Positions 1,111 through 17,021 of a stretch of 64,000 bases of DNA are shown here, piece by piece. A program made the translations under genes and the position numbers. Origin of the DNA: a virus; the IMG/VR virus record IMGVR_UViG_3300032087_004567, one strand, 5' to 3'. Positions within the stretch are counted from its first letter, which is position 1, and each line of letters begins with the position of its first letter. The notes beneath the pieces were generated by a model that saw nothing but the letters and a program-made list of their open reading frames with translations, did not search any database and was not told where the DNA came from.

Positions 1111-1674
1111 ATGGCTGAATCACATTATGTAGATAATAAAAAACTATATCAAGCAATATTAGAATATAAAAAAGACGTTAAATTAAAATTAGATCAAGGC
1201 AAAGATAAACCACCAATACCAAGATATGTTGGTCATTGTATGTTAATGATTGCAAATAGACTATCCCTTAAACCTAACTTTGCAAATTATTCTTATAGAG
1301 AAGAAATGATATCTGATGGTGTAGAAAATTGTGTATGCTATTTTGATAACTATGATCCAGAAAGATATAATAATCCATTTGCATATTTTACCCAGATAAT
1401 TTATTTTGCATTCTTAAGAAGAATACAGAAAGAAAAGAAACAACTTTATATTAAACATAAGTCATTAGAGAATAGCTTAATATTAGAAGAATTACATAAT
1501 CAAGGTGAGCATGATGATGGTAAATATAAACCAGCTTACATTGATATTGATAATGAAAATATGCAAGAGTTTGTAAAGACTTTTGAAACTAATTTACTTA
1601 ATAAACGTAAGAAGAAGAAAAAAGGCGTTGAGAAATTTATAGAGGAAGATAATGAAAATAGCTCTACTGGGTGA
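1111..1674 (+). CDS. gp55: late-transcription sigma factor gp55
   Basis: HYVDNK, NFANYSYREEMISDG and NPFAYFTQIIYFAFLRRIQKEKKQ motifs. Confidence 0.95.
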   Translation: MAESHYVDNKKLYQAILEYKKDVKLKLDQGKDKPPIPRYVGHCMLMIANRLSLKPNFANYSYREEMISDGVENCVCYFDNYDPERYNNPFAYFTQIIYFAFLRRIQKEKKQLYIKHKSLENSLILEELHNQGEHDDGKYKPAYIDIDNENMQEFVKTFETNLLNKRKKKKKGVEKFIEEDNENSSTG

Positions 1675-2713
1675 TACCCACTTTGGTGCTAGAGGTGATA
1701 ATATACATTTTCATAGGTACTTTAAAAAGTTTTATGATAATGTCTTTTTTCCATATCTAGAAGAACATAATATAAATCGCATAATACAATTCGGTGATAT
1801 ATTTGATAGAAGAAAATATATAAACTTTCATTCATTACAATTATGTAAAGAATATTTCTTTGATAAACTAAAAGAAAAGAAAATACCAGCATGGATACTT
1901 ACCGGTAATCATGATACGTATTTTAAAAATACTAATAATGTTAATTCACCTAATCTACTACTACAAGAATATGATAACTTAGCATTAATAAACGAACCTG
2001 TAGATATAACTATGGATGGTTTAGATTTATTATTAGTACCTTGGATGTGTTTAGATAATCATCAAATGTGTATGGATGCAATGAAGAATACTAAATCGCA
2101 AATAGTAATAGGTCATTTTGAGATAAAAGGTTTTGAAATGCATATTGGTGCATTTTGTGATAAAGGTCTGAATGAAGATATTTTTAGTAAATTTGATACA
2201 GTACTATCGGGTCATTTTCATCATAAGTCTAATCGTAAAAATATAACTTATGTTGGTACACCATATGAAATGACTTGGTCTGATTTTGAAGATCCTAAAG
2301 GCTTTCATATTTTAGATACTGAAACTAGAGAAATAGAATATGTAAGAAATCCATATACTATGTTCCATAAAGTATGGTATGATGATAGTAATGCATCGAT
2401 GGATGAAATACTTGCACAAGATGTAGAGAAATATAACGGATGTATAGTTAAAGTAATAATTAAGAATAAACTTAATCCGGTATGGTTTGATATGTTTATT
2501 GAAAAGATAGAAAAGTCTGGTGTAGTAGATATGCAAATTGTAGAAGATCATCTAAACTTAAATTTAGAAGATGATGAAGATATTATTTCGGAAGCAGAAG
2601 ATACACCTACAATCCTTAGCAAATACATAGATTCCTTAGATATAAAGGCAGATAAAAAACAGCTTGAAAATTTATTGAGAAGTTTATATAATGAAGCTTT
2701 AACACTTGGATAG
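1652..2713 (+). CDS. gp47: recombination endonuclease subunit gp47 (Mre11/SbcD-like)
   Basis: Metallophosphoesterase motifs DTHFG, GDIFD, GNHD, GHFE, SGHFH. Confidence 0.95.
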   Translation: MKIALLGDTHFGARGDNIHFHRYFKKFYDNVFFPYLEEHNINRIIQFGDIFDRRKYINFHSLQLCKEYFFDKLKEKKIPAWILTGNHDTYFKNTNNVNSPNLLLQEYDNLALINEPVDITMDGLDLLLVPWMCLDNHQMCMDAMKNTKSQIVIGHFEIKGFEMHIGAFCDKGLNEDIFSKFDTVLSGHFHHKSNRKNITYVGTPYEMTWSDFEDPKGFHILDTETREIEYVRNPYTMFHKVWYDDSNASMDEILAQDVEKYNGCIVKVIIKNKLNPVWFDMFIEKIEKSGVVDMQIVEDHLNLNLEDDEDIISEAEDTPTILSKYIDSLDIKADKKQLENLLRSLYNEALTLG

Positions 2714-2715
2714 TT

Positions 2716-3249
2716 ATGAATATTTTTATATTAGATCTTGATATGGAAGAATGTGCAAAGGCTATGGTCGATCGACATATAGTTAAGATGCCTACTGAAT
2801 CATTACAGCTTTTAAGTACATCGCATAGAATGTTAGATGGTAATATGTACACCACTTGGAATAAACGTGGTGCTAAGATGACAAAATATTATCTTAATGA
2901 TGGTAGAGAAGATATTATAGCTAAAGACTGTCATCATAAACATCCGTGTCAGATATGGCTACAAAAATCACCTCGTAATTACGATTACTTATTCAGACTT
3001 ACTAAAGTAATGTGTAAAGAATATACATTTAGATATGGTAGGGTTCATGGTGTTGAAAAACGTTTAGATGATATAAAATCTCCACCACGTAATATTGGTA
3101 AGGATCCTTTTACATTACCACCTCAAGCTATGGATGAAGAATATAGACGTAACGACTTAGTAGAAGGTTATAAGAACTATTATAGAAAGGCTAAAAAACA
3201 TCTAGCAGCATGGAAAAATAGACCAGTACCTGCTTGGTATAATATATGA
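2716..3249 (+). CDS. pyrimidine-dimer DNA glycosylase / endonuclease V-like protein
   Basis: MNIFILD...DRHIVKMPTESLQLLST, HxxHPC, EYTFRYGRVH and PQAM motifs of this phage family. Confidence 0.75.
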   Translation: MNIFILDLDMEECAKAMVDRHIVKMPTESLQLLSTSHRMLDGNMYTTWNKRGAKMTKYYLNDGREDIIAKDCHHKHPCQIWLQKSPRNYDYLFRLTKVMCKEYTFRYGRVHGVEKRLDDIKSPPRNIGKDPFTLPPQAMDEEYRRNDLVEGYKNYYRKAKKHLAAWKNRPVPAWYNI

Positions 3250-4961
3250 TAATATTTGAATCGGTTAAATGGAAAAATCTATTAAGTACTGGTAACTCAT
3301 TTACTAAAATAGATATAACTAAAAATAAAAATACTCTAATGATTGGATCTAATGGTGCTGGTAAAAGTACTATATTAGATGCATTATGTTTTGGTTTATA
3401 TAATAAACCTTTTAGAAAGATACCTAAAGGTCATTTAGTAAATATGATCAATCAAAAGAACTTAGAGGTAGAAATAGAGTTTAGAGTGGGTAAAAGAAAT
3501 TATCGTATAGTTAGAGGTATAAAACCTAATAAGTTTGAAATATACTTAGATGATAATCTTATAGATCAAAATGCTGATGCAAAAGAGTATCAAGAATACT
3601 TAGAGAAGAATATACTAAAACTTAATCATAAATCGTTTTGTCAAATAGTTGTACTAGGTTCAGCTAACTTTCAACCTTTTATGCAATTATCTGTTACCAA
3701 TAGAAGACAAATAATAGAAGATTTATTAGACATACAAATATTTTCATTAATGAATAATATTTTAAAAACTAAGTTAAGTGATAATAAGTTAGAACTTAAT
3801 GAGGCTAGTTTTAATATTAGAAATAATGCAGATAAAATTACAATGCTTAAAGAGCATTTAGAAAAGCTTAAACAGAATAATGAAGATCTTATTAAACAAA
3901 AAGAAGATAAGATAGATGAGTATAGAAAGCAAATAGCTACTAATAATAAAACTATAAAAGATCTTACTGTTGATCTAAAAGCAAAACTAGATAGTATCTC
4001 TGATGGTGAAAAGCTTAAACTAAAAGATAAAGAAGTATGGAAATCTATACAAACACTTTCTGCTAAAAAGAGTCAGATAGAATCAGAAATAGAATTCTTT
4101 ACTGATCATAATGATTGTCCTACTTGTAAGCAGGGTATAGATCATGAACATAAACAAAGTATAGTTTCAAAAGATAACGAAAAGATAGAAGAGATAACTG
4201 AAATAGAAAAAAAGCTTGACGATACTCATGATAAGATAGCTGCTAGGTTTAAAGAAATAAATGCTATTAAAGTAAAGATAGATGAGCTTAATAAGACCAT
4301 ATCAAATTGCACAGTACAAATTGAGACTTATAACAATTTTATAACTGACCTGACTACTGAGATAACTAAGATAAAAAAGGATTCTAAAGATGGTGAGGAT
4401 AATTCTGAAGAGTTAAAGAAGTATAAAAACGATCTTAAAAAAGCTATAGAGAATAAAGAAACGTTAGCAAAGGATAAACAGTTATTAGATATTGCAGTTC
4501 ATATATTACGTGATAGTGGTATAAAGACAAAGATTATAAAGCAGTATGTACCAGTAATGAATAAATTAATAAATAAGTATCTCGCTGCATTAGACTTCTT
4601 TGTTAATTTTAACCTTAATGAAAATTTTGAAGAGACAATAAAGTCTAGACATAGAGATAATTTTGTATATGAAAATTTTTCTCAAGGTGAGAAACTTAGA
4701 ATTGATTTAGCGTTATTATTTACTTGGAGGGCAATAGCTAAGTTAAGAAATAGTGCTAATACTAATTTATTAATTATGGATGAAATATTAGATTCATCTT
4801 TAGATATGGATGGTACTGATGAGTTTCTAAAGTTGATACAACAGTTGACTGAAGAAACAAATGTCTTTATAATATCCCATAAAGGTGATCAATTATTTGA
4901 AAAATTTGATAATGTAATGAGATTTGAGAAATATAAAAACTTTTCGAGGATGATAGTATGA
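3246..4961 (+). CDS. gp46: recombination ATPase gp46 (Rad50/SbcC-like)
   Basis: Walker A GSNGAGKST, CPTC zinc hook in the coiled coil, FSQGE signature, LIMDE Walker B. Confidence 0.96.
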   Translation: MIIFESVKWKNLLSTGNSFTKIDITKNKNTLMIGSNGAGKSTILDALCFGLYNKPFRKIPKGHLVNMINQKNLEVEIEFRVGKRNYRIVRGIKPNKFEIYLDDNLIDQNADAKEYQEYLEKNILKLNHKSFCQIVVLGSANFQPFMQLSVTNRRQIIEDLLDIQIFSLMNNILKTKLSDNKLELNEASFNIRNNADKITMLKEHLEKLKQNNEDLIKQKEDKIDEYRKQIATNNKTIKDLTVDLKAKLDSISDGEKLKLKDKEVWKSIQTLSAKKSQIESEIEFFTDHNDCPTCKQGIDHEHKQSIVSKDNEKIEEITEIEKKLDDTHDKIAARFKEINAIKVKIDELNKTISNCTVQIETYNNFITDLTTEITKIKKDSKDGEDNSEELKKYKNDLKKAIENKETLAKDKQLLDIAVHILRDSGIKTKIIKQYVPVMNKLINKYLAALDFFVNFNLNENFEETIKSRHRDNFVYENFSQGEKLRIDLALLFTWRAIAKLRNSANTNLLIMDEILDSSLDMDGTDEFLKLIQQLTEETNVFIISHKGDQLFEKFDNVMRFEKYKNFSRMIV

Positions 4962-5479
4962 TATATGATTTAGTACCTGAAGATGATCCTATACTTCAAA
5001 GAAGACTAGATAACTTTAACGTAGCAGAACCTCCGATAGACCCAAGAGAGCTTGCAAATAATCTAATAGAGACTATGGTGGAGCATAATGGACTAGGTAT
5101 ATCAGCTAATCAATGTGGTTTACCTTATAGGGTGTTCGTAATGAGATCAATAGAACCATTAGTAGTAATTAATCCAAGAATAGTTGATACATCTACTAAA
5201 GAAGTACTAATGGAAGAAGGTTGTATATCTTTTCCTAATCTGGTTATAAAAATTAAAAGACCAGAAAAAATTAAAGTACGATATGTTACCTTAAAAGAAT
5301 TTGAACCGATGCAGTTAGATACAATAACTGAAACTTTTCATGGAATGTCTGCAAGGGTATTCCAACACGAACTCGATCATTTAAATGGAATTGACTATAG
5401 AACTAGAGCAAATAGTATTCATTTAGATAGAGGAATGAGAAAGCGAAAGAGACTAGAGAGACAATCTAGAAGTCTGTGA
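4958..5479 (+). CDS. def: peptide deformylase
   Basis: GLGISANQCG, EGCIS and QHELDHLNG motifs. Confidence 0.95.
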   Translation: MIYDLVPEDDPILQRRLDNFNVAEPPIDPRELANNLIETMVEHNGLGISANQCGLPYRVFVMRSIEPLVVINPRIVDTSTKEVLMEEGCISFPNLVIKIKRPEKIKVRYVTLKEFEPMQLDTITETFHGMSARVFQHELDHLNGIDYRTRANSIHLDRGMRKRKRLERQSRSL

Positions 5480-5504
5480 CCTTCCACAATAACTAGGAGA
5501 ATAA

Positions 5505-6353
5505 ATGCAAAAAATAAAAGTAGCTGAAATATTTTATAGTATTCAGGGTGAAGGCTTGTACGCTGGTGTACCTAGTATATTTTTAAGAACCTTTGGATGT
5601 AATTTTACATGTTCAGGTTTTGGTATGCCAAGAGGACAAGTTAGCGATGAAAGAAATAAAATACCTATTACTGAGACAAGTACATATGATAATTTACCAT
5701 TAGTAAAGACCGGTTGTGATTCATATGCATCTTGGGATCCAAGATTTAAAAATCTATCTAAGTTCTATACATTAGAAGAGATAGAAGATATTATTATAGA
5801 TTTATTACCGTATAAGGAATGGAGAGATGAGCATCTTATCATTACTGGTGGTGAACCATTACTTGGTTGGCAAAAGGCATATATTAATCTCTTACAGAGA
5901 GATAAGATGAAGAAATGTAAACATATTACTTTTGAAACTAATGGCACGCAAGAATTAAGAGATGAGTTTAGTGAGTTTTTAAATAACTGGTCTGTTGATA
6001 ATGAAACTAACTTTACATTTAGTGTAAGTACTAAACTAAGCCCTTCTGGTGAAAAATTTGAAGATGCAGTTAAACCAGAAGTTATATCTAGTTACAGTAT
6101 AGGTAATCAATTATTTTTTAAATTTGTAATTGATAGTGACGAAGATGTAGAAGAGATAGAAAAAGCACTTAAGGTCTATGATCTAAAAGAAGTAACCGGT
6201 CATGAACCTATAGTATATGTTATGCCTGTTGGTGGCACGTCAGATTTATACGATGTCAACAGAAGAAAGGTTGCAGAAATAGCTATGAAAAAAGGTTGGA
6301 GATTTAGTCCACGTCTGCAGGTTGATATTTGGAAAAACGCATGGGGTACTTAA
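5505..6353 (+). CDS. queE: 7-carboxy-7-deazaguanine synthase (radical SAM)
   Basis: EIFYSIQGEG, FLRTFGCNFTC...GCDS, ITGGEPLL, FETNG, SPRLQV; adjacent to queD and folE. Confidence 0.9.
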   Translation: MQKIKVAEIFYSIQGEGLYAGVPSIFLRTFGCNFTCSGFGMPRGQVSDERNKIPITETSTYDNLPLVKTGCDSYASWDPRFKNLSKFYTLEEIEDIIIDLLPYKEWRDEHLIITGGEPLLGWQKAYINLLQRDKMKKCKHITFETNGTQELRDEFSEFLNNWSVDNETNFTFSVSTKLSPSGEKFEDAVKPEVISSYSIGNQLFFKFVIDSDEDVEEIEKALKVYDLKEVTGHEPIVYVMPVGGTSDLYDVNRRKVAEIAMKKGWRFSPRLQVDIWKNAWGT

Positions 6354-6354
6354 T

Positions 6355-6849
6355 ATGAATTATTCGTATAGTATGATGGCTAGAGCAATACATGGTATTT
6401 GTAGTAATGTAGAAGCATCTAAAATAAAATTTGATTATATTGTAGGATTATCAAGAGGTGGGTTAGTACCTGCGGTAAGATTATCACATTGTTTAAATTT
6501 AGATCTTGTACCATTAAGATGGTCATTACGTGATCATAAGGCAAGAGATGTAAGAATACTTTCTAATATTCTAAGCGATCTAACTGAAGGTAAAAAAATA
6601 TTAATGGTAGATGATCTTATTGATTCAGGTGAATCAATTGATGTAATGTTACATCAGATGGCAAGAATAAGAGGTCAATTACAATTTAATTTATTTGATA
6701 AAACTTGGGAAAATAATTTAGATATTGCAGTATTATTATTTAATACTGATCAAAAGAAAGTAAGACGTCCTAGGTTTGCATATGAAAATTTTAGTAGAAA
6801 AGAACGTCCTGAATGGATTAATTTTTGGTGGGAGGCAAAAGCAGCATGA
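6355..6849 (+). CDS. type I phosphoribosyltransferase (Gpt/Hpt-like)
   Basis: VGLSRGGLVPA, PRPP-binding loop ILMVDDLIDSGES, C-terminal WINFWWE. ATG at 6355 follows the queE stop. Confidence 0.85.
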   Translation: MNYSYSMMARAIHGICSNVEASKIKFDYIVGLSRGGLVPAVRLSHCLNLDLVPLRWSLRDHKARDVRILSNILSDLTEGKKILMVDDLIDSGESIDVMLHQMARIRGQLQFNLFDKTWENNLDIAVLLFNTDQKKVRRPRFAYENFSRKERPEWINFWWEAKAA

Positions 6850-7343
6850 AATGGTATAGTACAAAAACGTATGGTAATGATCAAGGATTAAGTTGTTGTT
6901 TTAGACAATGGAAAGCTGATCATAGTCATTGTTCGTTAATACATGGTTATAGTTTAGGTTTTAAATTAGTATTTGAATGCGATAAATTAGATGCTAGAAA
7001 CTGGGTAATGGACTTTGGAGGATTAAAAGATCTTAAAGAATGGTTAAAGTATATGTTCGATCATACTTTGGTTATAGCTGAAAGTGATCCAAAGTATGAT
7101 GAGTTAGAAAGATTAGGTAAGATAGGTCTTGCTGATGTTAGAGTAGTAGATGCAGTTGGAGCTGAAAAGTTTGCAGAATTAGTCTTTCGTAAGATGACTG
7201 AAATATTAGATAAAGCAAGAGAGGATGGTAAGTTACTTAATCCTTCAGTTAAGGTGAAGAGTGTAGAATGTTTTGAGCATGGTGCTAATTCTGCAATCTT
7301 TGAAGAAGATAATGTAGAAAGTGAATTTGGGACTTTATTATGA
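6846..7343 (+). CDS. queD: 6-carboxy-5,6,7,8-tetrahydropterin synthase (QueD/PTPS family)
   Basis: SHCSLIHGY, WVMDFGGLK, FDHTL and EHGANSA motifs; ATGA overlap with the PRTase stop. Confidence 0.9.
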   Translation: MKWYSTKTYGNDQGLSCCFRQWKADHSHCSLIHGYSLGFKLVFECDKLDARNWVMDFGGLKDLKEWLKYMFDHTLVIAESDPKYDELERLGKIGLADVRVVDAVGAEKFAELVFRKMTEILDKAREDGKLLNPSVKVKSVECFEHGANSAIFEEDNVESEFGTLL

Positions 7344-8023
7344 GTTGCTGGGAAAAGATAACTGAAAAAATGATTAAAGATGGCCATAGATTCTATGCTG
7401 CCGATAATGTATCTAAGTATATTGAACCACATGAAAAAGAAATACTAATTGATGAATGTACTAGAGCGTTTGAGTTTGTTCTTGATAGTTTATTAGTAGA
7501 TAGAAAGAACGATCCTAATAGTCAAGGTACTGCAAGACGATTAGCTAAGATGTATTATAATGAAATATTTGCAGGTAGATATACTCCTACACCTAATGCT
7601 ACTGCATTTCCTAACACTGGTGATGACAAGTATGACGGTATGTTAGTGGTAAGGGCAGAGTTAAGATCTATTTGTTCGCATCATCATCAACCTGTAAAGG
7701 GTGTTGCTTATATTGCAATTATACCTAATGAAAAGTTAATTGGTTTATCTAAGTATGTTAGACTTGCACAACATCTTGCAAGACGTGGTACATTGCAAGA
7801 AGAGTTATGTAATAGAATAGTAAATAGTATTCGTGAGGCTACTGGTTCAGATGATGTAGCTGTTTATATTTCTGCAACACATGGTTGTATGGAAAATAGA
7901 GGTATTAATGCTACTTCATCTCTTACTCAAACTACTAGATTAAGCGGTCAATTCCATGATCCTGATGTTAAGAAAGAGTTCTTTGATAATATTGCACTAC
8001 AGCAATCGTATGGTGAGAAGTAG
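7340..8023 (+). CDS. folE: GTP cyclohydrolase I
   Basis: TARRLAKMY, SICSHH, IGLSK, LQEEL and HGCMENRG motifs. Confidence 0.95.
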   Translation: MSCWEKITEKMIKDGHRFYAADNVSKYIEPHEKEILIDECTRAFEFVLDSLLVDRKNDPNSQGTARRLAKMYYNEIFAGRYTPTPNATAFPNTGDDKYDGMLVVRAELRSICSHHHQPVKGVAYIAIIPNEKLIGLSKYVRLAQHLARRGTLQEELCNRIVNSIREATGSDDVAVYISATHGCMENRGINATSSLTQTTRLSGQFHDPDVKKEFFDNIALQQSYGEK

Positions 8024-8052
8024 TTGATTTAATTTAGGAAATATATTATAAT
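8024..8052 (+). promoter_or_regulatory. early sigma70-type promoter
   Basis: TTGATT-N17-TATAAT in a tagTTGATTtaattt context repeated across the window. Confidence 0.8.
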
Positions 8053-8074
8053 ATTATTTTATTATGGAGGTAAT

Positions 8075-8335
8075 ATGATTAGTCAACTAAGTTCAAAAGC
8101 TAGAGTTAAACAAGATGGCATTGGTGAAGATACAATGCATACATTATGGGATTATCATGCTAGTGCTCATACAGATGAATATAGAGTTATGTGTAAAGAT
8201 GCTATTAAGAAGTCATCTGGTAAAAATGAGACTAAATCTAACGCATGTGATGCATTAGATAAAATGACATCTAAAACTAAAATGATGCAGTTTGTAACTA
8301 ATTATTTTCTTAAAGGTGAAGGAAGAGGTGTCTAA
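8075..8335 (+). CDS. hypothetical protein
   Basis: ORF with GGAGG RBS directly after the promoter. Confidence 0.7.
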   Translation: MISQLSSKARVKQDGIGEDTMHTLWDYHASAHTDEYRVMCKDAIKKSSGKNETKSNACDALDKMTSKTKMMQFVTNYFLKGEGRGV

Positions 8336-8688
8336 TGCCTAAGATGTATTTTGCAGAGTTTACCAAAGACAATAAAGTATTTCAAAAGTTTGGTCATACA
8401 GGTCATAACGATGCAATGATAAGACTTAATAATATTACAAAAGAATATCCGCAGTTTAAGGCAAGAGTCTTAGCTGCGGCATATCATAATGATATTACAA
8501 AGTGTCAAGGGGCAGAAGAAGCTTTTAAATGTATGTACCCTAAGAATTTTTGGTTAGAAGAAAAAATATCTGGTATTACCGAATGTGTTGTATTAGATCA
8601 ATCGACTAGAAATTCTGTTATTCAAGCAGTGAGAAAATTGAATACTAAATTTAAGGAGGAGTGTTTTGGCAATCAAGATAGCGCATGA
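8335..8688 (+). CDS. hypothetical protein, possible T5orf172/GIY-YIG-like nuclease domain
   Basis: N-terminal MYFAEF...FQKFGHT...RL pattern and a late conserved E resemble GIY-YIG variants; weak. Confidence 0.4.
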   Translation: MPKMYFAEFTKDNKVFQKFGHTGHNDAMIRLNNITKEYPQFKARVLAAAYHNDITKCQGAEEAFKCMYPKNFWLEEKISGITECVVLDQSTRNSVIQAVRKLNTKFKEECFGNQDSA

Positions 8689-9508
8689 ATGTCCCTTAGG
8701 AGTTTTTTATAGAGTTCAAGAACTTACTGATTATGATTATGCATTAGTTCATTTATTTGAAGAGTCAGAAGAATACTATAATAAATTTCTTATGGCTAAA
8801 ATGGCAGGTAGAGAAATTATTTTAGATAATTCTATATTTGAATTAGGTGAGGCATTTGATGCAGAGAAGTATGCATATTGGATAGAAAAGCTTAAACCTG
8901 ATTGGTATATAGTACCTGATAGTTTAGAGAATAAAAATGAAACTATTTCTAACTATGAAAACTGGATTAAGAATTATAATGACTTACCTGGTAAAAAGAT
9001 TGGAGTTGTACAAGGTAAAAATTATGATGAGGCAGTTGATTGTTATAAATATTTTTCTGTAGCGCCATATTGTGAAAAGGTAGCAATATCATTTGACTAT
9101 TCTTTTTACGAGACTATGAATCATAACTTAGAGTTTCCAACTAAGTATCATGCATGGTGTTTAGGTAGACAAGTATTTTTAGATAGGTTAATTAGAGATG
9201 ATTGGATTAATTATAAGAGACCTCATCATTTACTTGGTTGTAGTTTACCTCAAGAGTTTTTATACTATAAAACGAACGATAAGTTTAGATTTATAGAATC
9301 TTTAGATACTTCTAATCCAGTAGTTGCAGGATTAAAGGGGATAGTTTATAATGATACTATGGGTTTAGATGATAAACCTTCAGAAAAATTATATACGATG
9401 ATTGAGAGTGATGTGAGTAAAAATACGCTCAGTCTTATTGAAAAAAATATAGATGCATTTAGGAGAATATGTAATGAACTGGGTAGCGCTTTTCAGTCAA
9501 ACGGGTAG
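8666..9508 (+). CDS. divergent TGT-fold deazaguanine transglycosylase-like protein (DpdA/DpdA3-like)
   Basis: Ordered TGT-like motifs IILDNSIFE, IVPD, IGVVQG, HHLLG, SLDTS; embedded in the que cluster; TTG start with AGGAGG RBS. Confidence 0.7.
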   Translation: MAIKIAHECPLGVFYRVQELTDYDYALVHLFEESEEYYNKFLMAKMAGREIILDNSIFELGEAFDAEKYAYWIEKLKPDWYIVPDSLENKNETISNYENWIKNYNDLPGKKIGVVQGKNYDEAVDCYKYFSVAPYCEKVAISFDYSFYETMNHNLEFPTKYHAWCLGRQVFLDRLIRDDWINYKRPHHLLGCSLPQEFLYYKTNDKFRFIESLDTSNPVVAGLKGIVYNDTMGLDDKPSEKLYTMIESDVSKNTLSLIEKNIDAFRRICNELGSAFQSNG

Positions 9509-9998
9509 TGAAATAGATACTCTAAGTAGAAATCTAAATCAAAAACCTGATCAAATACTTACTAACAATAAAGACTATGATGGACCTTTAGAAGTTACAA
9601 AAGGTACACATAAAGAATTAATGGATATGTTAGAGGAGTTAGATCCTTATACTTTAGTTACTTTACATGGTTATTTAAGAATAATACCTGAACGTATTAC
9701 CTCCCATTGTAAAAGAATGTATAACGGTCATCCTGCTCTTGCTAATGTATATCCTGAACTAAGAGGATTAGATCCACAAAAGAGAACATGGCAGAATATA
9801 GAAAGATATGCTGCGGTTGGATCTATTGTTCATCATGTAATACCCGAGGTAGATGCAGGGGACGTAGTTGCATATGAATCTATTGTAATACCACATAGTG
9901 ACTATACAGAAGAGGCGTTATATGGTGATTTAAGAACATGTTCAATAGTATCATGGAAGAAATTTTTAATGGAGTACTTTAATGAAAATCGGCATTAG
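9474..9998 (+). CDS. PurN-fold formyltransferase, candidate preQ1 N-formyltransferase (DpdN-like)
   Basis: ALFSQTGS, HGYLRII, YNGHPAL, GSIVHHV and EVDAGDV correspond to GART motifs; AGGAG RBS; lies between the DpdA-like gene and queF. Confidence 0.78.
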   Translation: MNWVALFSQTGSEIDTLSRNLNQKPDQILTNNKDYDGPLEVTKGTHKELMDMLEELDPYTLVTLHGYLRIIPERITSHCKRMYNGHPALANVYPELRGLDPQKRTWQNIERYAAVGSIVHHVIPEVDAGDVVAYESIVIPHSDYTEEALYGDLRTCSIVSWKKFLMEYFNENRH

Positions 9999-10503
9999 TG
10001 GTGTGCATGGTAGTGGTAAGACTACTTTACTTAATAATGAAATGTTTAGAAGTTGCACTAAATGCGATGAAGTAACTAGAACGGTTAAAAAAGAGTATAA
10101 CGTTGAGATAAACGAACAAGGTAATGATGTTACTCAGAAGTTAATTATGAGAGAACATATGGCAAATCTTATACTCAATAATAATATGGTAACTGATAGA
10201 ACTGTTATTGATTGTATGGCCTATACCCATTACCTTTATGATAATAAACAAGTAAGTAAAGATACGTTTAATTATATTTCTATGTGCTATAGTAAACTAG
10301 TTAAGAAATATGATCTTATATTTTATCTTGTACCAGTTGAAGATAAAATTGCCGATGATGGTGTTAGATCTACTAATGTAGAATTTAGAGATAAAATGAT
10401 AGAGTATTTTGAAAAGTATATTAATCATTTTAATGTAGTAAAGGTTAAAGGTGATTATAAAGAACGTATAAGGTTTTGTAGAGAAACTTTATGCTTATTT
10501 TAA
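9982..10503 (+). CDS. P-loop nucleotide kinase-like protein (AAA_28/NadR-type)
   Basis: GISGVHGSGKTT Walker A, DRTVID, YDLIFYL, DDGVR. Confidence 0.75.
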   Translation: MKIGISGVHGSGKTTLLNNEMFRSCTKCDEVTRTVKKEYNVEINEQGNDVTQKLIMREHMANLILNNNMVTDRTVIDCMAYTHYLYDNKQVSKDTFNYISMCYSKLVKKYDLIFYLVPVEDKIADDGVRSTNVEFRDKMIEYFEKYINHFNVVKVKGDYKERIRFCRETLCLF

Positions 10504-10512
10504 AGGAGAAGA

Positions 10513-11442
10513 ATGGATAATCAAAAGAAACTTAACGAACTAGTAAGTGTTCATTTAGGTAAAGCCGGGGATGGTTCAGTAGTTAAACCTTATGTAACCC
10601 CTGATGAAGTTGATCCTAGTTTACTTGTAGGTGTACCTAGACAATTAAATAGAACGCAATATGATTTAGATGATGGCAATCTACCTTTCGTCGGTTACGA
10701 CGTATGGAACGGCTATGAATTTTCAACTTTACTTACTAGTGGGTTTCCTGTATCGGGATGGGTTAAGTTTAGCTATAGTTCAAGTACACCTTTTATTGTA
10801 GAAAGTAAATCGGTTAAACTTTATCTTAACTCTTTTAATATGGCAAAGATAATTGAGACTGAAAAAGATATAGAAGTTATAGAGACTAAAATTAAGAATG
10901 ATATAGGTGAGGTAGTAAAAGGTGATGTTGACGTTAGAGTGTTTATTGATCCTAAGGAAACAAAAGAACCTTTTAAGAAACCTTTCTATAGTATAGAAAA
11001 ATTAGTTGATGTAGAAAATATAAAGTTTGATCGTTATAATGAATCTGAAGACATACTAAAAATCATACCCATGGGTGAATGTCCGTTGAAAGGATATTAT
11101 AGATCCTATTCGTTACGTTCTAATTGTAGGGTAACTAATCAACCTGATTGGGGTGATGTATACATTTATATCAAAGGTGCTATGACGGTAAGTTTAGAGT
11201 CATTATTACAATATATTGTTTCTATGAGAAGAGAGAATCATTTTCATGAGGAAATATGTGAATGTATCTATAAACGATTACATGATCTATTGTCACCTAT
11301 TGAGTTATTTGTTGGTTGTTTATATACTAGACGTGGTGGGATTGATATTAATCCTATTAGGGCAACATCTATGGAAACTGTTAAGGCAGTAAGTAATATT
11401 CATAATGTAAATAGACCATCAACTAAGACTGCAAGACAATGA
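10513..11442 (+). CDS. queF: NADPH-dependent 7-cyano-7-deazaguanine (preQ0) reductase, two-domain type
   Basis: QueF motif VESKSVKLYLNSF, catalytic RSNCRVTNQPDWG, FHEE, YTRRGGIDINP. Confidence 0.93.
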   Translation: MDNQKKLNELVSVHLGKAGDGSVVKPYVTPDEVDPSLLVGVPRQLNRTQYDLDDGNLPFVGYDVWNGYEFSTLLTSGFPVSGWVKFSYSSSTPFIVESKSVKLYLNSFNMAKIIETEKDIEVIETKIKNDIGEVVKGDVDVRVFIDPKETKEPFKKPFYSIEKLVDVENIKFDRYNESEDILKIIPMGECPLKGYYRSYSLRSNCRVTNQPDWGDVYIYIKGAMTVSLESLLQYIVSMRRENHFHEEICECIYKRLHDLLSPIELFVGCLYTRRGGIDINPIRATSMETVKAVSNIHNVNRPSTKTARQ

Positions 11443-11717
11443 TTGAATACAAATATAATGAACCTGAACATTTAGATAGTTTAAAGAAGTATATTGATAA
11501 TACCTATAATCAACATTATGCAAAAGGTAGTATACAGGCAACAGAATATATTATTGATTCGGGTTTAGGTAAAGGTTTTTGTATTGGGAATGTAATTAAG
11601 TATGCCTCCCGATATGGAAAGAAAGAGGGTAAGAATAAGAATGATTTATATAAAATCGTTCATTACATCATAATGGAACTAAATAGTTTAGATAAGGAAC
11701 AAAATGAATCTAAGTGA
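11439..11717 (+). CDS. DUF3310/SaV-like protein (T7 gp1.7 nucleotide-kinase-related family)
   Basis: QHY...IQATEYI...GFCIGNVIKYASRYGKKEG...DLYKIVHY. Confidence 0.8.
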   Translation: MIEYKYNEPEHLDSLKKYIDNTYNQHYAKGSIQATEYIIDSGLGKGFCIGNVIKYASRYGKKEGKNKNDLYKIVHYIIMELNSLDKEQNESK

Positions 11718-12459
11718 GGCTTTAAACGTATTACCGGACACCGATAACAAAGTTCTATCTGTACATTCCGGAGGTATGGATTCTTCTATAATGACTATGT
11801 TGTTGGTAGAAAAATATGGTAAAGACAAAGTGGAGACTGTTTCTTATCGGTACGGTCAGAAACAGGCTGAAGAACTAGTAAGAGCGCAGGAGTTCTGCAG
11901 AACGTTAGGTATCTTAAGACATGAACTAGATCTAACCATCTTAGGTTATATTGCAAGAGAAATCTCCGCTAACATTGTAGAGAGTCATATTAAGATGCCA
12001 ACCATTAAAGAGGTACTAGGAGATCCTCAGCCTAAGACCTACGTACCGTTTAGAAACTTAATTCTACTTTCTATGACTCTTGCCCAGGCCGAGGCAAGAA
12101 ACTGTAATTATATATTTACCGGATTACAAGTACATGATGAATATGGCTACTGGGATACATCACAGAAGTTTGTTGATAGTATAAATGCTGTTGCCGATCA
12201 AAATAGAACGCATAAGGTAAAAATTATTGCACCCTTTAGTCATTTATCTAAGTATGATGAAATAAAATTATGCCAGGAGATGGGTAAAGAAGAGTTATTA
12301 GAACATACTCTAACGTGTTATAATCCTGATTCAGAAGGAAGATCATGCGGTGTATGTCCTTCTTGTTCTGAACGTATTGCTAATTTTATTAAAGCAGGGG
12401 TAAGAGATCCAATAGTGTATGTAAAAGATTTGCCGTGGACACAATTATTAAATAAATAG
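11704..12459 (+). CDS. queC: 7-cyano-7-deazaguanine synthase
   Basis: SGGMDS PP-loop, YGQK, YVPFRN, TCY...CGVCPSCSER zinc site. Confidence 0.94.
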   Translation: MNLSEALNVLPDTDNKVLSVHSGGMDSSIMTMLLVEKYGKDKVETVSYRYGQKQAEELVRAQEFCRTLGILRHELDLTILGYIAREISANIVESHIKMPTIKEVLGDPQPKTYVPFRNLILLSMTLAQAEARNCNYIFTGLQVHDEYGYWDTSQKFVDSINAVADQNRTHKVKIIAPFSHLSKYDEIKLCQEMGKEELLEHTLTCYNPDSEGRSCGVCPSCSERIANFIKAGVRDPIVYVKDLPWTQLLNK

Positions 12460-12463
12460 TTAT

Positions 12464-12997
12464 ATGGCAAAATATAATCATAGAACTATACATACAGTAT
12501 ATCTTGATATGGATGGGGTTCTATGTGATTTCGATTCATATTACAGATCAATATACGGGGTAAATTGCAGAGATGACGATAATGAAGATAATTGGTACGA
12601 GTTTGTCAATAATCAAGGATTTCAAGAGCTCGATAGAATGCCAGGTTACGATGATCTGTTTTCAATGCTCAACGAGCTGTATGTGGATATCGAGATTCTT
12701 TCCTGTATTACTAGTAGGAAGAATAATAAAGAGGTTGCAAAACAAAAAGTAGAATGGTTATTTAGAAATAGTTTAGAAAATAATGTAATTAACTTTACTA
12801 TAACAAAACAAGGTAAAGGTAATTATGCTAATCCAAATGTATTGCTGATTGATGATTCTGATGAATGTATTTCAGCATTTAAACAAAGTGGGGGGTATGC
12901 TTTAAAGTATACCGGTATTGATAAGCTAAAATTTGAGATTGAATATTTATTAAGTGAAGATATATTATGTGTGCGATCGTTGGGTCATTTCAGTTAG
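12464..12997 (+). CDS. HAD-family 5'(3')-deoxyribonucleotidase
   Basis: YLDMDGVLCDF, KVEWL and LLIDD motifs. Confidence 0.8.
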   Translation: MAKYNHRTIHTVYLDMDGVLCDFDSYYRSIYGVNCRDDDNEDNWYEFVNNQGFQELDRMPGYDDLFSMLNELYVDIEILSCITSRKNNKEVAKQKVEWLFRNSLENNVINFTITKQGKGNYANPNVLLIDDSDECISAFKQSGGYALKYTGIDKLKFEIEYLLSEDILCVRSLGHFS

Positions 12998-13590
12998 ATA
13001 AACTTAAAGAACTAATCAAGTTAAATTCCTATAGAGGTTCTCATTCATACTCTATATCGTTTTATGATATAGAAAATGGTACGTTGAATAATGTTATAAA
13101 AGACTTTGGTGAATTAGATGTTGATACTATAAGAATACCTTATGGTGATTATTGTATAGCACATATACAAGCGCCTACAACAACTAAAAAAGATAAAGAT
13201 TCAATTCATCCGGCAACTGTCGATGATTGTTATCTATGGCATAATGGTATAATAAAAGAAATGACAATTGAGAAGTTTAGTAAAGAGTATAATACTAAAT
13301 GGGATACTAAGTTACTACTTGAAGGAATTAAAAAAGTAGGTTATAATATACTCAATGAAATGGATGGTACGTTTAGTTGTTTAATGTATAAAGATAAGAA
13401 TTTATTATTATTTCGTAATGAAATATCTCCGATGTTTATAGATGATGATTTTAATATTTCATCAACGAAGTTTGATAATAGTAGAGAAACAGATCCTAAT
13501 AAAGTTATACAAATGGATCTAAAGAATAAAAGTCTACAAACAGTAGATAGATTTAAAACGTATTTTAACCCTTATTACTTTGGAGATTAA
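12967..13590 (+). CDS. class II (Ntn) glutamine amidotransferase-like protein
   Basis: N-terminal MCAIVG nucleophile, RG, IHP, LWHNGII, WDT. Confidence 0.8.
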   Translation: MCAIVGSFQLDKLKELIKLNSYRGSHSYSISFYDIENGTLNNVIKDFGELDVDTIRIPYGDYCIAHIQAPTTTKKDKDSIHPATVDDCYLWHNGIIKEMTIEKFSKEYNTKWDTKLLLEGIKKVGYNILNEMDGTFSCLMYKDKNLLLFRNEISPMFIDDDFNISSTKFDNSRETDPNKVIQMDLKNKSLQTVDRFKTYFNPYYFGD

Positions 13591-13939
13591 TGTGAGTAAT
13601 TTTACAAGAATAAAAGAATGGTCTGATGAAAGACTTATTACCCAACAAGAACCTGATCGTAATGGTTTTATTTCTATGATAGTAGAAGAGTGTGGTGAGT
13701 TTTTAGCAGCTGAATCTACAGAAGGTAGAATAGATGCAATGGCCGATATGATTGTATTTTGTTATGGTGAAATAGCAAAGTATGGATATGATGGTGATAA
13801 AGTTATGGATGAGGTAATTAAAGAGATAAGTTCTCGTACTGGTTCATATAGTCCTGAAACTAAGAAGTGGCAAAAGGATAAATCTCCAGAAGCACAAGCA
13901 AAGTGGTATTCTGCTAATTTTAATAATTGTAAGTTATAA
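13580..13939 (+). CDS. MazG/all-alpha NTP pyrophosphatase-like protein
   Basis: VEECGEF...IDAMADMIV acidic EExxE...DxxxD pattern; start codon uncertain. Confidence 0.65.
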   Translation: MEINVSNFTRIKEWSDERLITQQEPDRNGFISMIVEECGEFLAAESTEGRIDAMADMIVFCYGEIAKYGYDGDKVMDEVIKEISSRTGSYSPETKKWQKDKSPEAQAKWYSANFNNCKL

Positions 13940-13948
13940 TGAAGAAAG

Positions 13949-14812
13949 GTGACTATGAAAATAGAAATTAATATTAATGAGCTGAGAAAGGCAAAGCTCT
14001 TTGTAGCTACTCCTATGTATGGTGGTCAATGTGCAGGGTTGTATACAAAGTCTATTGCCGATCTATCAGCATTATGTGCAAAGTATGGCTTGCAATTGCA
14101 ACTGTATTATTTGTTTAATGAGTCGTTGATTACTAGAGCTAGAAACTACTGCTGTGATGAGTTTCTAAGAAGTGGTGCAACACATTTACTATTCTTAGAT
14201 TCTGATATTGGTTTTAATCCGCATGATGTTATTGCTATGTTAACGTTAATGTTACAGAATCCTGGTAAGTTTGACATTATGGGTGCGCCTTATCCTAAGA
14301 AATGTATCTCATGGGAGAAGATTTTACAGGCGGTTAATAAAGGTGTTGCTGATGAGAATCCTAACGAGTTAGATAACTTTGTTGGTGATTTTGTATTTAA
14401 TCCTAAAGGTGGTGCACAAACTATACCATTAGGTGAACCTGCCGAGGTAATGGAGCTAGGTACTGGCTTTATGATGATACAGAGGGAAGTATTTAAGAAG
14501 TATGACGAGAAGTTTCCTGAGTTAAAATATAAACCTGATCATGTTCGTACTGAGCATTTTGATGGTACAAGAGAAATTATGGCATACTTTGATTGTATTA
14601 TCGATCCTAAGTCTAAGAGGTATCTATCTGAAGATTATATGTTCTGTTATAATGCTGAAAAGGCTGGTATTAGAACTTGGTTATGTCCTTGGATGAAAAC
14701 TACCCATGTTGGTTCTTATATGTTTGGTGGAAGCTTAAGCCATCTTGCAACTGTGGGGGCATCTGCTACTGCCGATCCTGGTAAACTTAAAAAGAAAGGT
14801 GCCATAAAATGA
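13949..14812 (+). CDS. GT-A fold glycosyltransferase-like protein
   Basis: ATPMYGG, NESLITRARN, FLDSD (DxD), GTGFMMI, LSEDYMFC. Confidence 0.7.
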   Translation: MTMKIEININELRKAKLFVATPMYGGQCAGLYTKSIADLSALCAKYGLQLQLYYLFNESLITRARNYCCDEFLRSGATHLLFLDSDIGFNPHDVIAMLTLMLQNPGKFDIMGAPYPKKCISWEKILQAVNKGVADENPNELDNFVGDFVFNPKGGAQTIPLGEPAEVMELGTGFMMIQREVFKKYDEKFPELKYKPDHVRTEHFDGTREIMAYFDCIIDPKSKRYLSEDYMFCYNAEKAGIRTWLCPWMKTTHVGSYMFGGSLSHLATVGASATADPGKLKKKGAIK

Positions 14813-15501: not shown

Positions 15502-16443
15502 ATGCTAAATGATGAAATGCTCTGGGGGCAGAAATATCGCCCTAGAACAGTAAGTGATACGATTTTACCTAACGAATTGAAAGATACTTTTCAAGAGTTT
15601 GTAAATCAAAAGAATGTACCTAATTTACTTTTATCTGGTTCTCCAGGTACTGGTAAAACTACAGCTGCAAAAGCTATGTTAGAAGAAGTAGATTGTGATT
15701 ATATTGTTATTAACGGTAGTTTAAATGGTAATATTGATACGTTAAGAAATGATATAAAGTCATTTGCATCTGCTGTATCTTTATCTGGTGGTAGAAAATA
15801 TGTAATACTAGATGAAGCTGATTATCTAAATCCTAATTCAACTCAACCTGCTCTTCGTAACTTTATGGAAGAGTATTCTAAGAATTGTGGTTTTATTCTA
15901 ACGTGTAACTTTAAGAATAGAATTATAGAACCTCTACATTCAAGATGTGGTGTTGTTGAATTTAAAATACCTAAACAAGATAAACCTAAACTTGCTAAAA
16001 GTTTCTTTCAAAGAGTTAAAGAAATATTAGATCAAGAAAATATTGAGTATGATCAAAAGGTAGTTGCCTCTTTAGTACAGAAACATTTTCCAGACTTCAG
16101 AAGAACTATAAATGAACTGCAAAGATATTCTGCTACCGGTAAAATAGATTCAGGTATACTATCTAATCATAAAGAAGAATCGTTGAAGATGGTTATGGGT
16201 TTATTGAAAGAGAAAAACTTTACTGAGGTTAGAAAATGGGTAGGTGAAAATTCTGATGTTGATACTACTACATTTTTTAGAAGTTTATATGATACAGCAT
16301 CTGAATTTTTAAAGCCTGCATCTATACCTCAGTTAGTTTTACTATTAGCTGATTATCAATATAAGGCTGCATTTGTAGCTGATCCTGAAATTAATATTAT
16401 GGCCTGCTTAACTGAAATAATGGTTGAAGCAGAATTTAAATAG
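15502..16443 (+). CDS. gp44: clamp loader large subunit gp44
   Basis: KYRP, GSPGTGKTT, ILDEAD, PLHSRC, FPDFRR. Confidence 0.95.
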   Translation: MLNDEMLWGQKYRPRTVSDTILPNELKDTFQEFVNQKNVPNLLLSGSPGTGKTTAAKAMLEEVDCDYIVINGSLNGNIDTLRNDIKSFASAVSLSGGRKYVILDEADYLNPNSTQPALRNFMEEYSKNCGFILTCNFKNRIIEPLHSRCGVVEFKIPKQDKPKLAKSFFQRVKEILDQENIEYDQKVVASLVQKHFPDFRRTINELQRYSATGKIDSGILSNHKEESLKMVMGLLKEKNFTEVRKWVGENSDVDTTTFFRSLYDTASEFLKPASIPQLVLLLADYQYKAAFVADPEINIMACLTEIMVEAEFK

Positions 16444-17021
16444 TGGGTAAAGTAGGAGTATTAATTTCTGGTACTGGATCTAATCTTAAAGCTCTTGTGG
16501 ATGCTTTAGTCCCAATAGCTTGGGTTGGATCCAACAATCCAGATGCAAAAGGTTTGGATTTTGCTCATAAGAAGAACATCCATACCTTTGTGGAACCAAA
16601 GATTGCCGAACTTGAAAAGATCTTAGATCATTTTATGAAAGAGGTTGAGTTTTTGGTTCTTGCAGGTTTTATGAGAGTACTATCTCCTGAATTTGTGAAG
16701 AAGTATCCCAAAAGGATTATAAATATTCATCCAAGTTTGTTACCTGCATTCAAAGGTAAGGATGCTATTCGTAGAGCATATGATTATGGTTGTAAAGTTA
16801 TGGGTGTTACTATCCATTATGTTAATGAGAAAGTAGATGAAGGTGAGATCATTGCACAAGAACCTCTTTGGATTGTGAATACAATTTTAAATCATAATGC
16901 ACAACATACTAATCAAGTACGATATACTTACAAAGAAGTCGAACAACAAGTTCATAAGCTAGAACATAGTATGTATCACAAAGTCGTTCGAGATATGTTA
17001 GGTATTGGTGGTTGGGGATAA
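16443..17021 (+). CDS. purN: phosphoribosylglycinamide formyltransferase
   Basis: LISGTGSNL, VLAGFMRVL, INIHPSLLP, GVTIHYV, VDEGEII. Confidence 0.92.
   Translation: MGKVGVLISGTGSNLKALVDALVPIAWVGSNNPDAKGLDFAHKKNIHTFVEPKIAELEKILDHFMKEVEFLVLAGFMRVLSPEFVKKYPKRIINIHPSLLPAFKGKDAIRRAYDYGCKVMGVTIHYVNEKVDEGEIIAQEPLWIVNTILNHNAQHTNQVRYTYKEVEQQVHKLEHSMYHKVVRDMLGIGGWG

Follow-up and report, generated by a model that had tools for sequence, protein, structure and literature searches.

Every G in the DNA of Flavobacterium phage immuto is replaced by 7-formamidomethyl-7-deazaguanine (fdPreQ1), and complete G replacement has been reported for immuto, phiST and CP220 (Cui et al. 2023). Among the DpdA enzymes, DpdA3 is the sole subfamily tied to 100% replacement; the function of its partner DpdN is a prediction, and no DNA modification was seen when DpdA3 was tested in E. 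coli (Cui et al. 2023). We analysed a 64,000-nucleotide stretch of phage DNA (IMG/VR record IMGVR_UViG_3300032087_004567, ~31% G+C; the whole stretch is called the window) and studied two overlapping genes in it, which encode a 280-aa protein resembling tRNA-guanine transglycosylase (TGT) and a formyltransferase. This pair is almost certainly the DpdA3 and DpdN of the phage pathway that puts fdPreQ1 in the place of guanine in virion DNA. The identification rests on sequence identity to the immuto proteins (55% with the DpdA of immuto 2-6A, E 4e-96; 37% with immuto DpdN YP_010114479, E 3e-28), on the same gene order and on the presence of all pathway genes, as the window holds a complete FolE-QueD-QueE-QueC-QueF set together with DpdA3 and DpdN. 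The pair has thus already been described as a system, a point missed by the first-pass annotation, which had been made from the sequence alone, and the window provides a new, diverged copy from an uncultured phage.

Like immuto, the window has the order phosphoribosyltransferase (PRTase), FolE, DpdA3, DpdN, AAA_28 kinase and QueF, and the predicted product is fdPreQ1. Unlike immuto, which has PolA, the phage of the window is T4-like, with Mre11/Rad50-like genes and the gp45 clamp, the gp44 clamp loader and a family-B polymerase (PolB) nearby. The MazG-like gene lies downstream of DpdA3 in the window and upstream of it in immuto, and DpdA3 and DpdN overlap in the window, while a small open reading frame (ORF) separates them in immuto. 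QueC, an amidotransferase and a nucleotidase are further members of the window block, again unlike immuto. A more distant relative is the Campylobacter phage CP220, which has a dADG genome. Its DpdA3 (YP_009169190) is 39% identical to that of the window (1e-37 against CP220-type proteins), with an AAA_28 kinase gene directly downstream and an HD phosphohydrolase gene directly upstream. CP220 has neither DpdN nor QueF, and its final base is ADG, not fdPreQ1.

The DpdA3 gene starts with a TTG at 8666, 6 nt past a Shine-Dalgarno (SD) sequence, AAGGAGG, at 8653-8659. The ORF is a real gene, with 4080 homologues at E<=1e-3 and 1455 clusters at 50% identity. The protein contains the motifs LDNS (residues 53-56), VPD (83-85), VVQG (114-117), HLLG (188-191) and SLDTS (212-216), all in the TGT order read in the first-pass annotation. 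D54, P84, H188, L190, G191 and D214 are invariant across 63 aligned relatives, and H7, H29 and R168 are also invariant. The 280-aa protein matches no Pfam or NCBIfam family at E<=0.01, including PF01702 (TGT), and a phmmer search against the PDB returned no match; its sole family-library match is PHROG 19058, with function unassigned. The AlphaFold (AF2) model (predicted local distance difference test (pLDDT) 95.6, predicted template modelling score (pTM) 0.92) is a plain eight-stranded (beta/alpha)8 triosephosphate isomerase (TIM) barrel. Foldseek searches with this model gave top matches that are all TGTs (E ~3e-8). Exhaustive structural alignment (VIA) gave Z 18.2 for ArcTGT (1iq8), 18.0 for bDpdA, the DNA preQ0 insertase of Salmonella Montevideo (7ui4), 16.2 for bacterial TGT (3unt) and 15.7 for QTRT2 (6fv5), with the best unrelated barrel at 15.1. 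The comparison with TGT and DpdA structures that had been suggested as a check on the first-pass annotation therefore returned a TGT-type barrel.

The family profile of DpdA3 found only bDpdA (7ui4) in the PDB, as a weak match (E 0.28). In this weak alignment the HLLG...SxDTSnP of DpdA3 falls on the HLLG...SIDSTTP of bDpdA, covering Leu236 and the nucleophile Asp256. D54-N-S-I-F58 of DpdA3 corresponds to the D95...F99 acid/base and gate motif of bDpdA, and to D72SGAF of DpdA1. The barrel and the conserved Asp motifs suggest that the TGT chemistry has been kept, with D54 as candidate general acid/base and D214 as candidate nucleophile. In its model, the 280-aa protein is a minimal TGT-type TIM barrel, a label that rests on fold and not on sequence. 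The C-terminal extension of a 419-aa homologue (P0188) was considered as a fused partner domain and is neither DpdN nor the kinase.

DpdA3 shares with bDpdA (PDB 7UI4) and the TGTs the TIM barrel (Z 16-18), the Asp nucleophile, the Asp acid/base and the HLLG and SxD(S/T)(S/T) motifs. Unlike bDpdA, it is missing ~175 residues of insertions, including Ins8 and the CxCx2Cx22H zinc site. In bDpdA, Ins8 makes up ~30% of the protein, is pinned by the zinc site and is highlighted in a DNA-docking model based on small-angle X-ray scattering. The DpdA3 model has only 36 residues from beta8 to alpha8, only ~59 residues follow the nucleophile Asp of SxDTS, and CxCxxC occurs neither in the window protein nor in any of the 63 aligned relatives. 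The absence of a C-terminal CxCxxC...H motif had been correctly noted before, together with the argument that the enzyme may for this reason act on a free nucleotide. This step of the argument fails, because DpdA1 of phage 9g (YP_009032326), which also lacks CxCxxC, inserts dPreQ0/dG+ into plasmid DNA in E. coli. Like DpdA3, 9g DpdA1 is a short phage TGT-fold enzyme with a D-x-x-x-F motif and no zinc motif; in sequence, the two are barely alignable (hhalign probability 3%). The modification made by 9g DpdA1 is partial and at the DNA level, and its que-cluster neighbours include no annotated kinase or pyrophosphatase, unlike the DpdA3 loci. Net charge was also rejected as a discriminator, the mean of the DpdA3 family being -8.3 and the value for the DNA-active 9g DpdA1 being -8.

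The formyltransferase gene likely starts at ATG 9474, which we prefer because an SD sequence, AGGAG, lies 8 nt upstream and the resulting N-terminus, MNWVALFSQTGSE, agrees with those of the relatives. From this start the DpdA3 and DpdN genes overlap by 35 nt, in line with the overlap reported in the first-pass annotation; from ATG 9453, the start of the longest ORF (181 aa), the overlap would be 56 nt. Like PurN (E. coli, 1C2T), DpdN has a Formyl_trans_N fold and an Asn-His-Asp catalytic triad, for which the candidates are N84-x-H86...D127, aligned to N106/H108/D144 of E. coli PurN. In the family alignment, an N-terminal loop, SQTGSE, contains an invariant Glu. DpdN is rejected as a true PurN, with 46 bits against the 150.1-bit equivalog cut-off of TIGR00639, and a second PurN encoded in the window passes this cut-off. 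The phage therefore has a true GAR transformylase in addition to a divergent DpdN.

We surveyed the neighbourhoods of 61 dereplicated IMG/VR DpdA3 loci with enough flank, all of which have DpdA3 by construction. DpdN is found downstream of DpdA3 in 58 of the 61, and the two ORFs abut or overlap in 48 (median -8 nt). We also found in-frame DpdA3-DpdN fusions in two 50%-identity clusters (P0161 and P0180); the P0161 contig, which we checked, has the order QueC, a 214-aa protein, the fusion, AAA_28 and QueF. The near-constant adjacency (58 of 61 loci) and the natural fusions make the coupling of DpdA3 to formylation, which the first-pass annotation had put forward, well supported: DpdA3 and DpdN are consecutive steps of one line, in either order. 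Seven loci, mostly from one sample (L032, L036, L051, L059, L061, L063 and L071), carry DpdA3 and DpdN with no other que gene, kinase or MazG detectable within +/-10 kb. In one lineage, a CxxCxxCC (YkgJ-like) protein fills the slot between DpdA3 and the kinase. This arrangement is seen at L094 (6001-8473), where a 236-aa CxxCxxCC protein (PF03692, YkgJ-like) replaces DpdN and is followed by AAA_28 and QueF. The DpdA3 of this locus has 586 aa, including a 317-aa N-terminal extension that matches no known family, and dUTPase and MazG genes lie directly upstream of it. According to Cui et al. 2023, the homologue of DpdM in E. coli is YkgJ.

The protein encoded after DpdA3 and DpdN has, according to its AF2 model (pLDDT 91), a small-molecule kinase fold and not a DNA motor fold, with NadR RNK (Z 17.8), dAK (15.3), TMPK (14.9) and dGK (14.6) as fold matches. 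We propose that this AAA_28 protein is a kinase for the modified deoxynucleotide. Its gene follows DpdA3 or DpdN in 39 of the 61 loci and occupies the same position in immuto, in CP220, in the fusion contig and in metagenomic relatives at 37-39% identity; in loci lacking DpdN, it comes directly after DpdA3. On the other side, a PRA-PH/MazG gene is found just upstream of DpdA3 in 20 of 58 related loci and in immuto. In other loci this upstream slot holds MazG of the PF03819 family (twice), NUDIX (once) or, in CP220, HD. Since unrelated pyrophosphatase families have been swapped in a fixed slot, function is indicated rather than chance. In the contig of one relative at 37% identity (P0240, genes 1433-3203), the NUDIX hydrolase, DpdA3 and AAA_28 kinase genes overlap.

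The kinase-fold protein after DpdA3 and the unrelated NTP pyrophosphatases before it support a reading in which the base exchange by DpdA3 takes place on a free nucleotide of deoxyguanosine, most likely dGMP; we hold this reading at about even confidence. The MazG-like pyrophosphohydrolase would make dGMP from dGTP, and DpdA3 would swap the guanine of dGMP for preQ1 by TGT double displacement, with D214 as nucleophile and D54 as acid/base. DpdN would formylate the aminomethyl group immediately before or after this exchange. The AAA_28 kinase would then phosphorylate the modified product, the phage family-B polymerase would incorporate it, and the purine PRTase may recycle the freed guanine to GMP and then to GTP for FolE. 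The T4 system of dCTPase, dCMP hydroxymethylase and dNMP kinase and the MazZ/DatZ/PurZ system of the Z-genomes are pre-replicative; the PurZ route runs from dGMP to dZMP. If our proposal is right, the present system would likewise destroy the canonical dNTP, modify a dNMP, re-phosphorylate it and polymerise it. The modifying step would differ in being a TGT-fold base exchange, which to our knowledge is found in no nucleotide-level system. The chances are roughly balanced that DpdA3 is the first TGT-fold enzyme to exchange the base on a free deoxynucleotide (dGMP + preQ1 -> dPreQ1-MP + guanine). Such an exchange also fits the 100% replacement reported in DpdA3 phages, and a modified-dGTP route had earlier been proposed for Campylobacter phages, as stated in Hutinet et al. 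2019. The free-nucleotide action proposed in the first-pass annotation thus stands as plausible on the gene context of kinase and pyrophosphatases and not on the zinc argument given for it.

Several points weigh against nucleotide-level exchange. All characterised members of the TGT superfamily that we know of act on a polymer (tRNA or DNA) or on a protein (Cap10), and none on a mononucleotide. The missing zinc site, small size and acidity of DpdA3 are shared by the DNA-active 9g DpdA1. No AAA_28 kinase gene was found within 2.6 kb downstream of DpdA3 in 22 of the 61 loci. Large phages often carry MazG, kinase and nucleotidase genes, whose presence near DpdA3 might have another cause, and the modelled kinase fold would suit a nucleoside kinase as well as an NMP kinase. 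Our literature search found no biochemistry on DpdA3, DpdN or the AAA_28 kinase, and no later work on DpdA3/DpdN substrates. Finally, the study that gave DpdA3 its name proposes, for this and all other DpdA subfamilies, that the exchange is post-replicative (Cui et al. 2023). In this explanation the end product is the same: each G of the phage DNA, duplex or replicating, is flipped out and replaced by DpdA3, DpdN formylates either preQ1 before insertion or dPreQ1 in DNA, and the kinase, MazG and nucleotidase contribute to the general supply of nucleotides or provide GTP for FolE. bDpdA and phage DpdA1/DpdA2 do work on DNA, DpdA1 does so without a zinc site, and the kinase is absent beside DpdA3 in about a third of the loci. 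However, post-replicative exchange leaves without a role a small-molecule kinase and an NTP pyrophosphatase that are tied to DpdA3 across divergent lineages, the pyrophosphatase slot even showing non-homologous replacements. DpdA3 also lacks Ins8, the bDpdA insertion of the DNA-docking model. In addition, DNA-level DpdAs reach <=30% of G, against 100% in the DpdA3 phages, and the E. coli test of DpdA3 was negative (Cui et al. 2023). We regard exchange in DNA as a serious possibility, but the less likely one.

Alternatively, a modified nucleotide or nucleoside might be made by a route that bypasses exchange on dGMP. The 7-deazaguanine base might be joined to phosphoribosyl pyrophosphate (PRPP) by the PRTase and then pass through a kinase and ribonucleotide reductase; ToyH/TubE join a 7-deazaguanine base to PRPP in deazapurine antibiotic pathways. 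Or DpdA3 might act on free dG released by the NT5C-like nucleotidase, with the AAA_28 protein as a deoxynucleoside kinase. The purine PRTase inside the cluster and the presence of the NT5C-like nucleotidase are consistent with such routes, as are the nucleoside kinases NadR RNK, dAK and dGK among the best structural matches of the kinase, and ADG nucleoside has been reported in CP220-infected cells (Cui et al. 2023). However, among the related loci, every one of which has DpdA3 by construction, the PRTase was found in only about a quarter, and the nucleotidase was rarer still; the PRTase version leaves DpdA3 without a role, and the nucleoside version requires another NMP kinase able to use the analogue. 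Routes of this kind are improbable in our estimation.

The genes at 5505-13939 form a single, co-directional and tightly packed block (Table 1). No terminators were found in 4800-14200, and a promoter scan over the same region did no better than with shuffled sequences.

Table 1. Genes of the DpdA3/DpdN block and two genes outside it; positions are those of the window.
Feature	Coordinates	Strand	Evidence or remark
Peptide deformylase	4958-5479	+	PF01327 6e-34; abuts queE
QueE-like radical SAM enzyme	5505..6353	+	PF13353 and PF04055; syntenic with annotated QueE genes
6-oxopurine phosphoribosyltransferase-like protein	6322..6849	+	PF00156 2.5e-11
QueD	6825..7343	+	PF01242 1.7e-14
FolE (GTP cyclohydrolase I)	7340..8023	+	PF01227 4e-40
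Two small ORFs, 86 and 117 aa	8075..8688	+	Between FolE and DpdA3; present in a subset of relatives
DpdA3-type 7-deazaguanine transglycosylase, 280 aa	8666..9508	+	Homology to immuto DpdA; TGT-fold model
DpdN-type PurN-like formyltransferase, 174 aa	9474..9998	+	PF00551 5e-13; immuto DpdN homology
AAA_28 P-loop kinase, nucleoside/nucleotide-kinase fold	9982..10503	+	PF13521 1.7e-11
Bimodular QueF (preQ0 to preQ1)	10513..11442	+	PF14819 5e-28, PF14489 1e-20
DUF3310 protein, 92 aa	11439..11717	+	PF11753 1e-12
QueC	11704..12459	+	PF06508 2.4e-49
NT5C/HAD-type 5'-deoxyribonucleotidase-like protein	12464..12997	+	phrog_2643 1.7e-26, PF06941 1e-4
Free-standing class II glutamine amidotransferase-like protein	12967..13590	+	PF13522 2e-5, phrog_12378 5e-52
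MazG-like (PRA-PH type) NTP pyrophosphohydrolase	13580..13939	+	PF01503 1.1e-5
Second, canonical PurN	16443-17021	+	TIGR00639 153.7 bits (cut-off 150.1); PF00551 9e-38; adjoins gp44 clamp-loader gene

The top PDB sequence matches of the PRTase are purine, xanthine-guanine and HGPRT enzymes. The two small ORFs match no Pfam or PHROG family; the 117-aa one overlaps the DpdA3 start by 23 nt, and the slot that they fill between FolE and DpdA3 holds a MazG-like gene in other lineages. The DUF3310 domain is also found in the C-terminal part (residues 122-184) of T7 gp1.7, a nucleotide kinase that matches PF11753 at 4.5e-23. DUF3310 recurs beside DpdA3, accounting for 7 of the 58 upstream neighbours and, in one locus (L091), for the gene directly downstream, and we count this as a further sign in favour of exchange on nucleotides. 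The class II amidotransferase gene, two genes past QueC, is present although the window also has QueF, and is kept in many related loci; the protein may be the ammonia source for QueC. Many related loci keep the deformylase gene in synteny with the cluster, and in a 38%-identical relative it lies directly upstream of DpdA3 (L087:3055-3510).

We also found DpdA3-like proteins in Bacillus phages (the BSTP12 and BSP7 group) and in Weizmannia phage Youna2, their genes being flanked by those of a small P-loop protein and of DNA polymerase A (L084:4896-5684 and L003:5935-6705 in this phage group). The BSTP12 assignment has an hhalign probability of 99.3%, and that of Youna2 rests on a tblastn match with 27% identity. 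In the Bacillus phages, the P-loop protein encoded upstream is only weakly like the AAA_28 kinase (hhalign 42%). Deposited records of the Bacillus phages label the DpdA3-like protein variously as NadR, integrase or polynucleotide kinase.

The gene pair itself is ordinary, being one more diverged copy of a described system. Its interest lies in the level at which DpdA3 meets its substrate, as the literature assumes exchange in DNA. If exchange on a free nucleotide is true, it would be an enzyme activity new to the TGT superfamily and would explain why 100% replacement is seen only in DpdA3 phages. It would also allow 7-substituted 7-deaza-dGTPs, reagents of use in sequencing and PCR, to be made enzymatically. 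As DpdA3 has more than 4000 homologues, an answer on its substrate would re-annotate many phage genomes.

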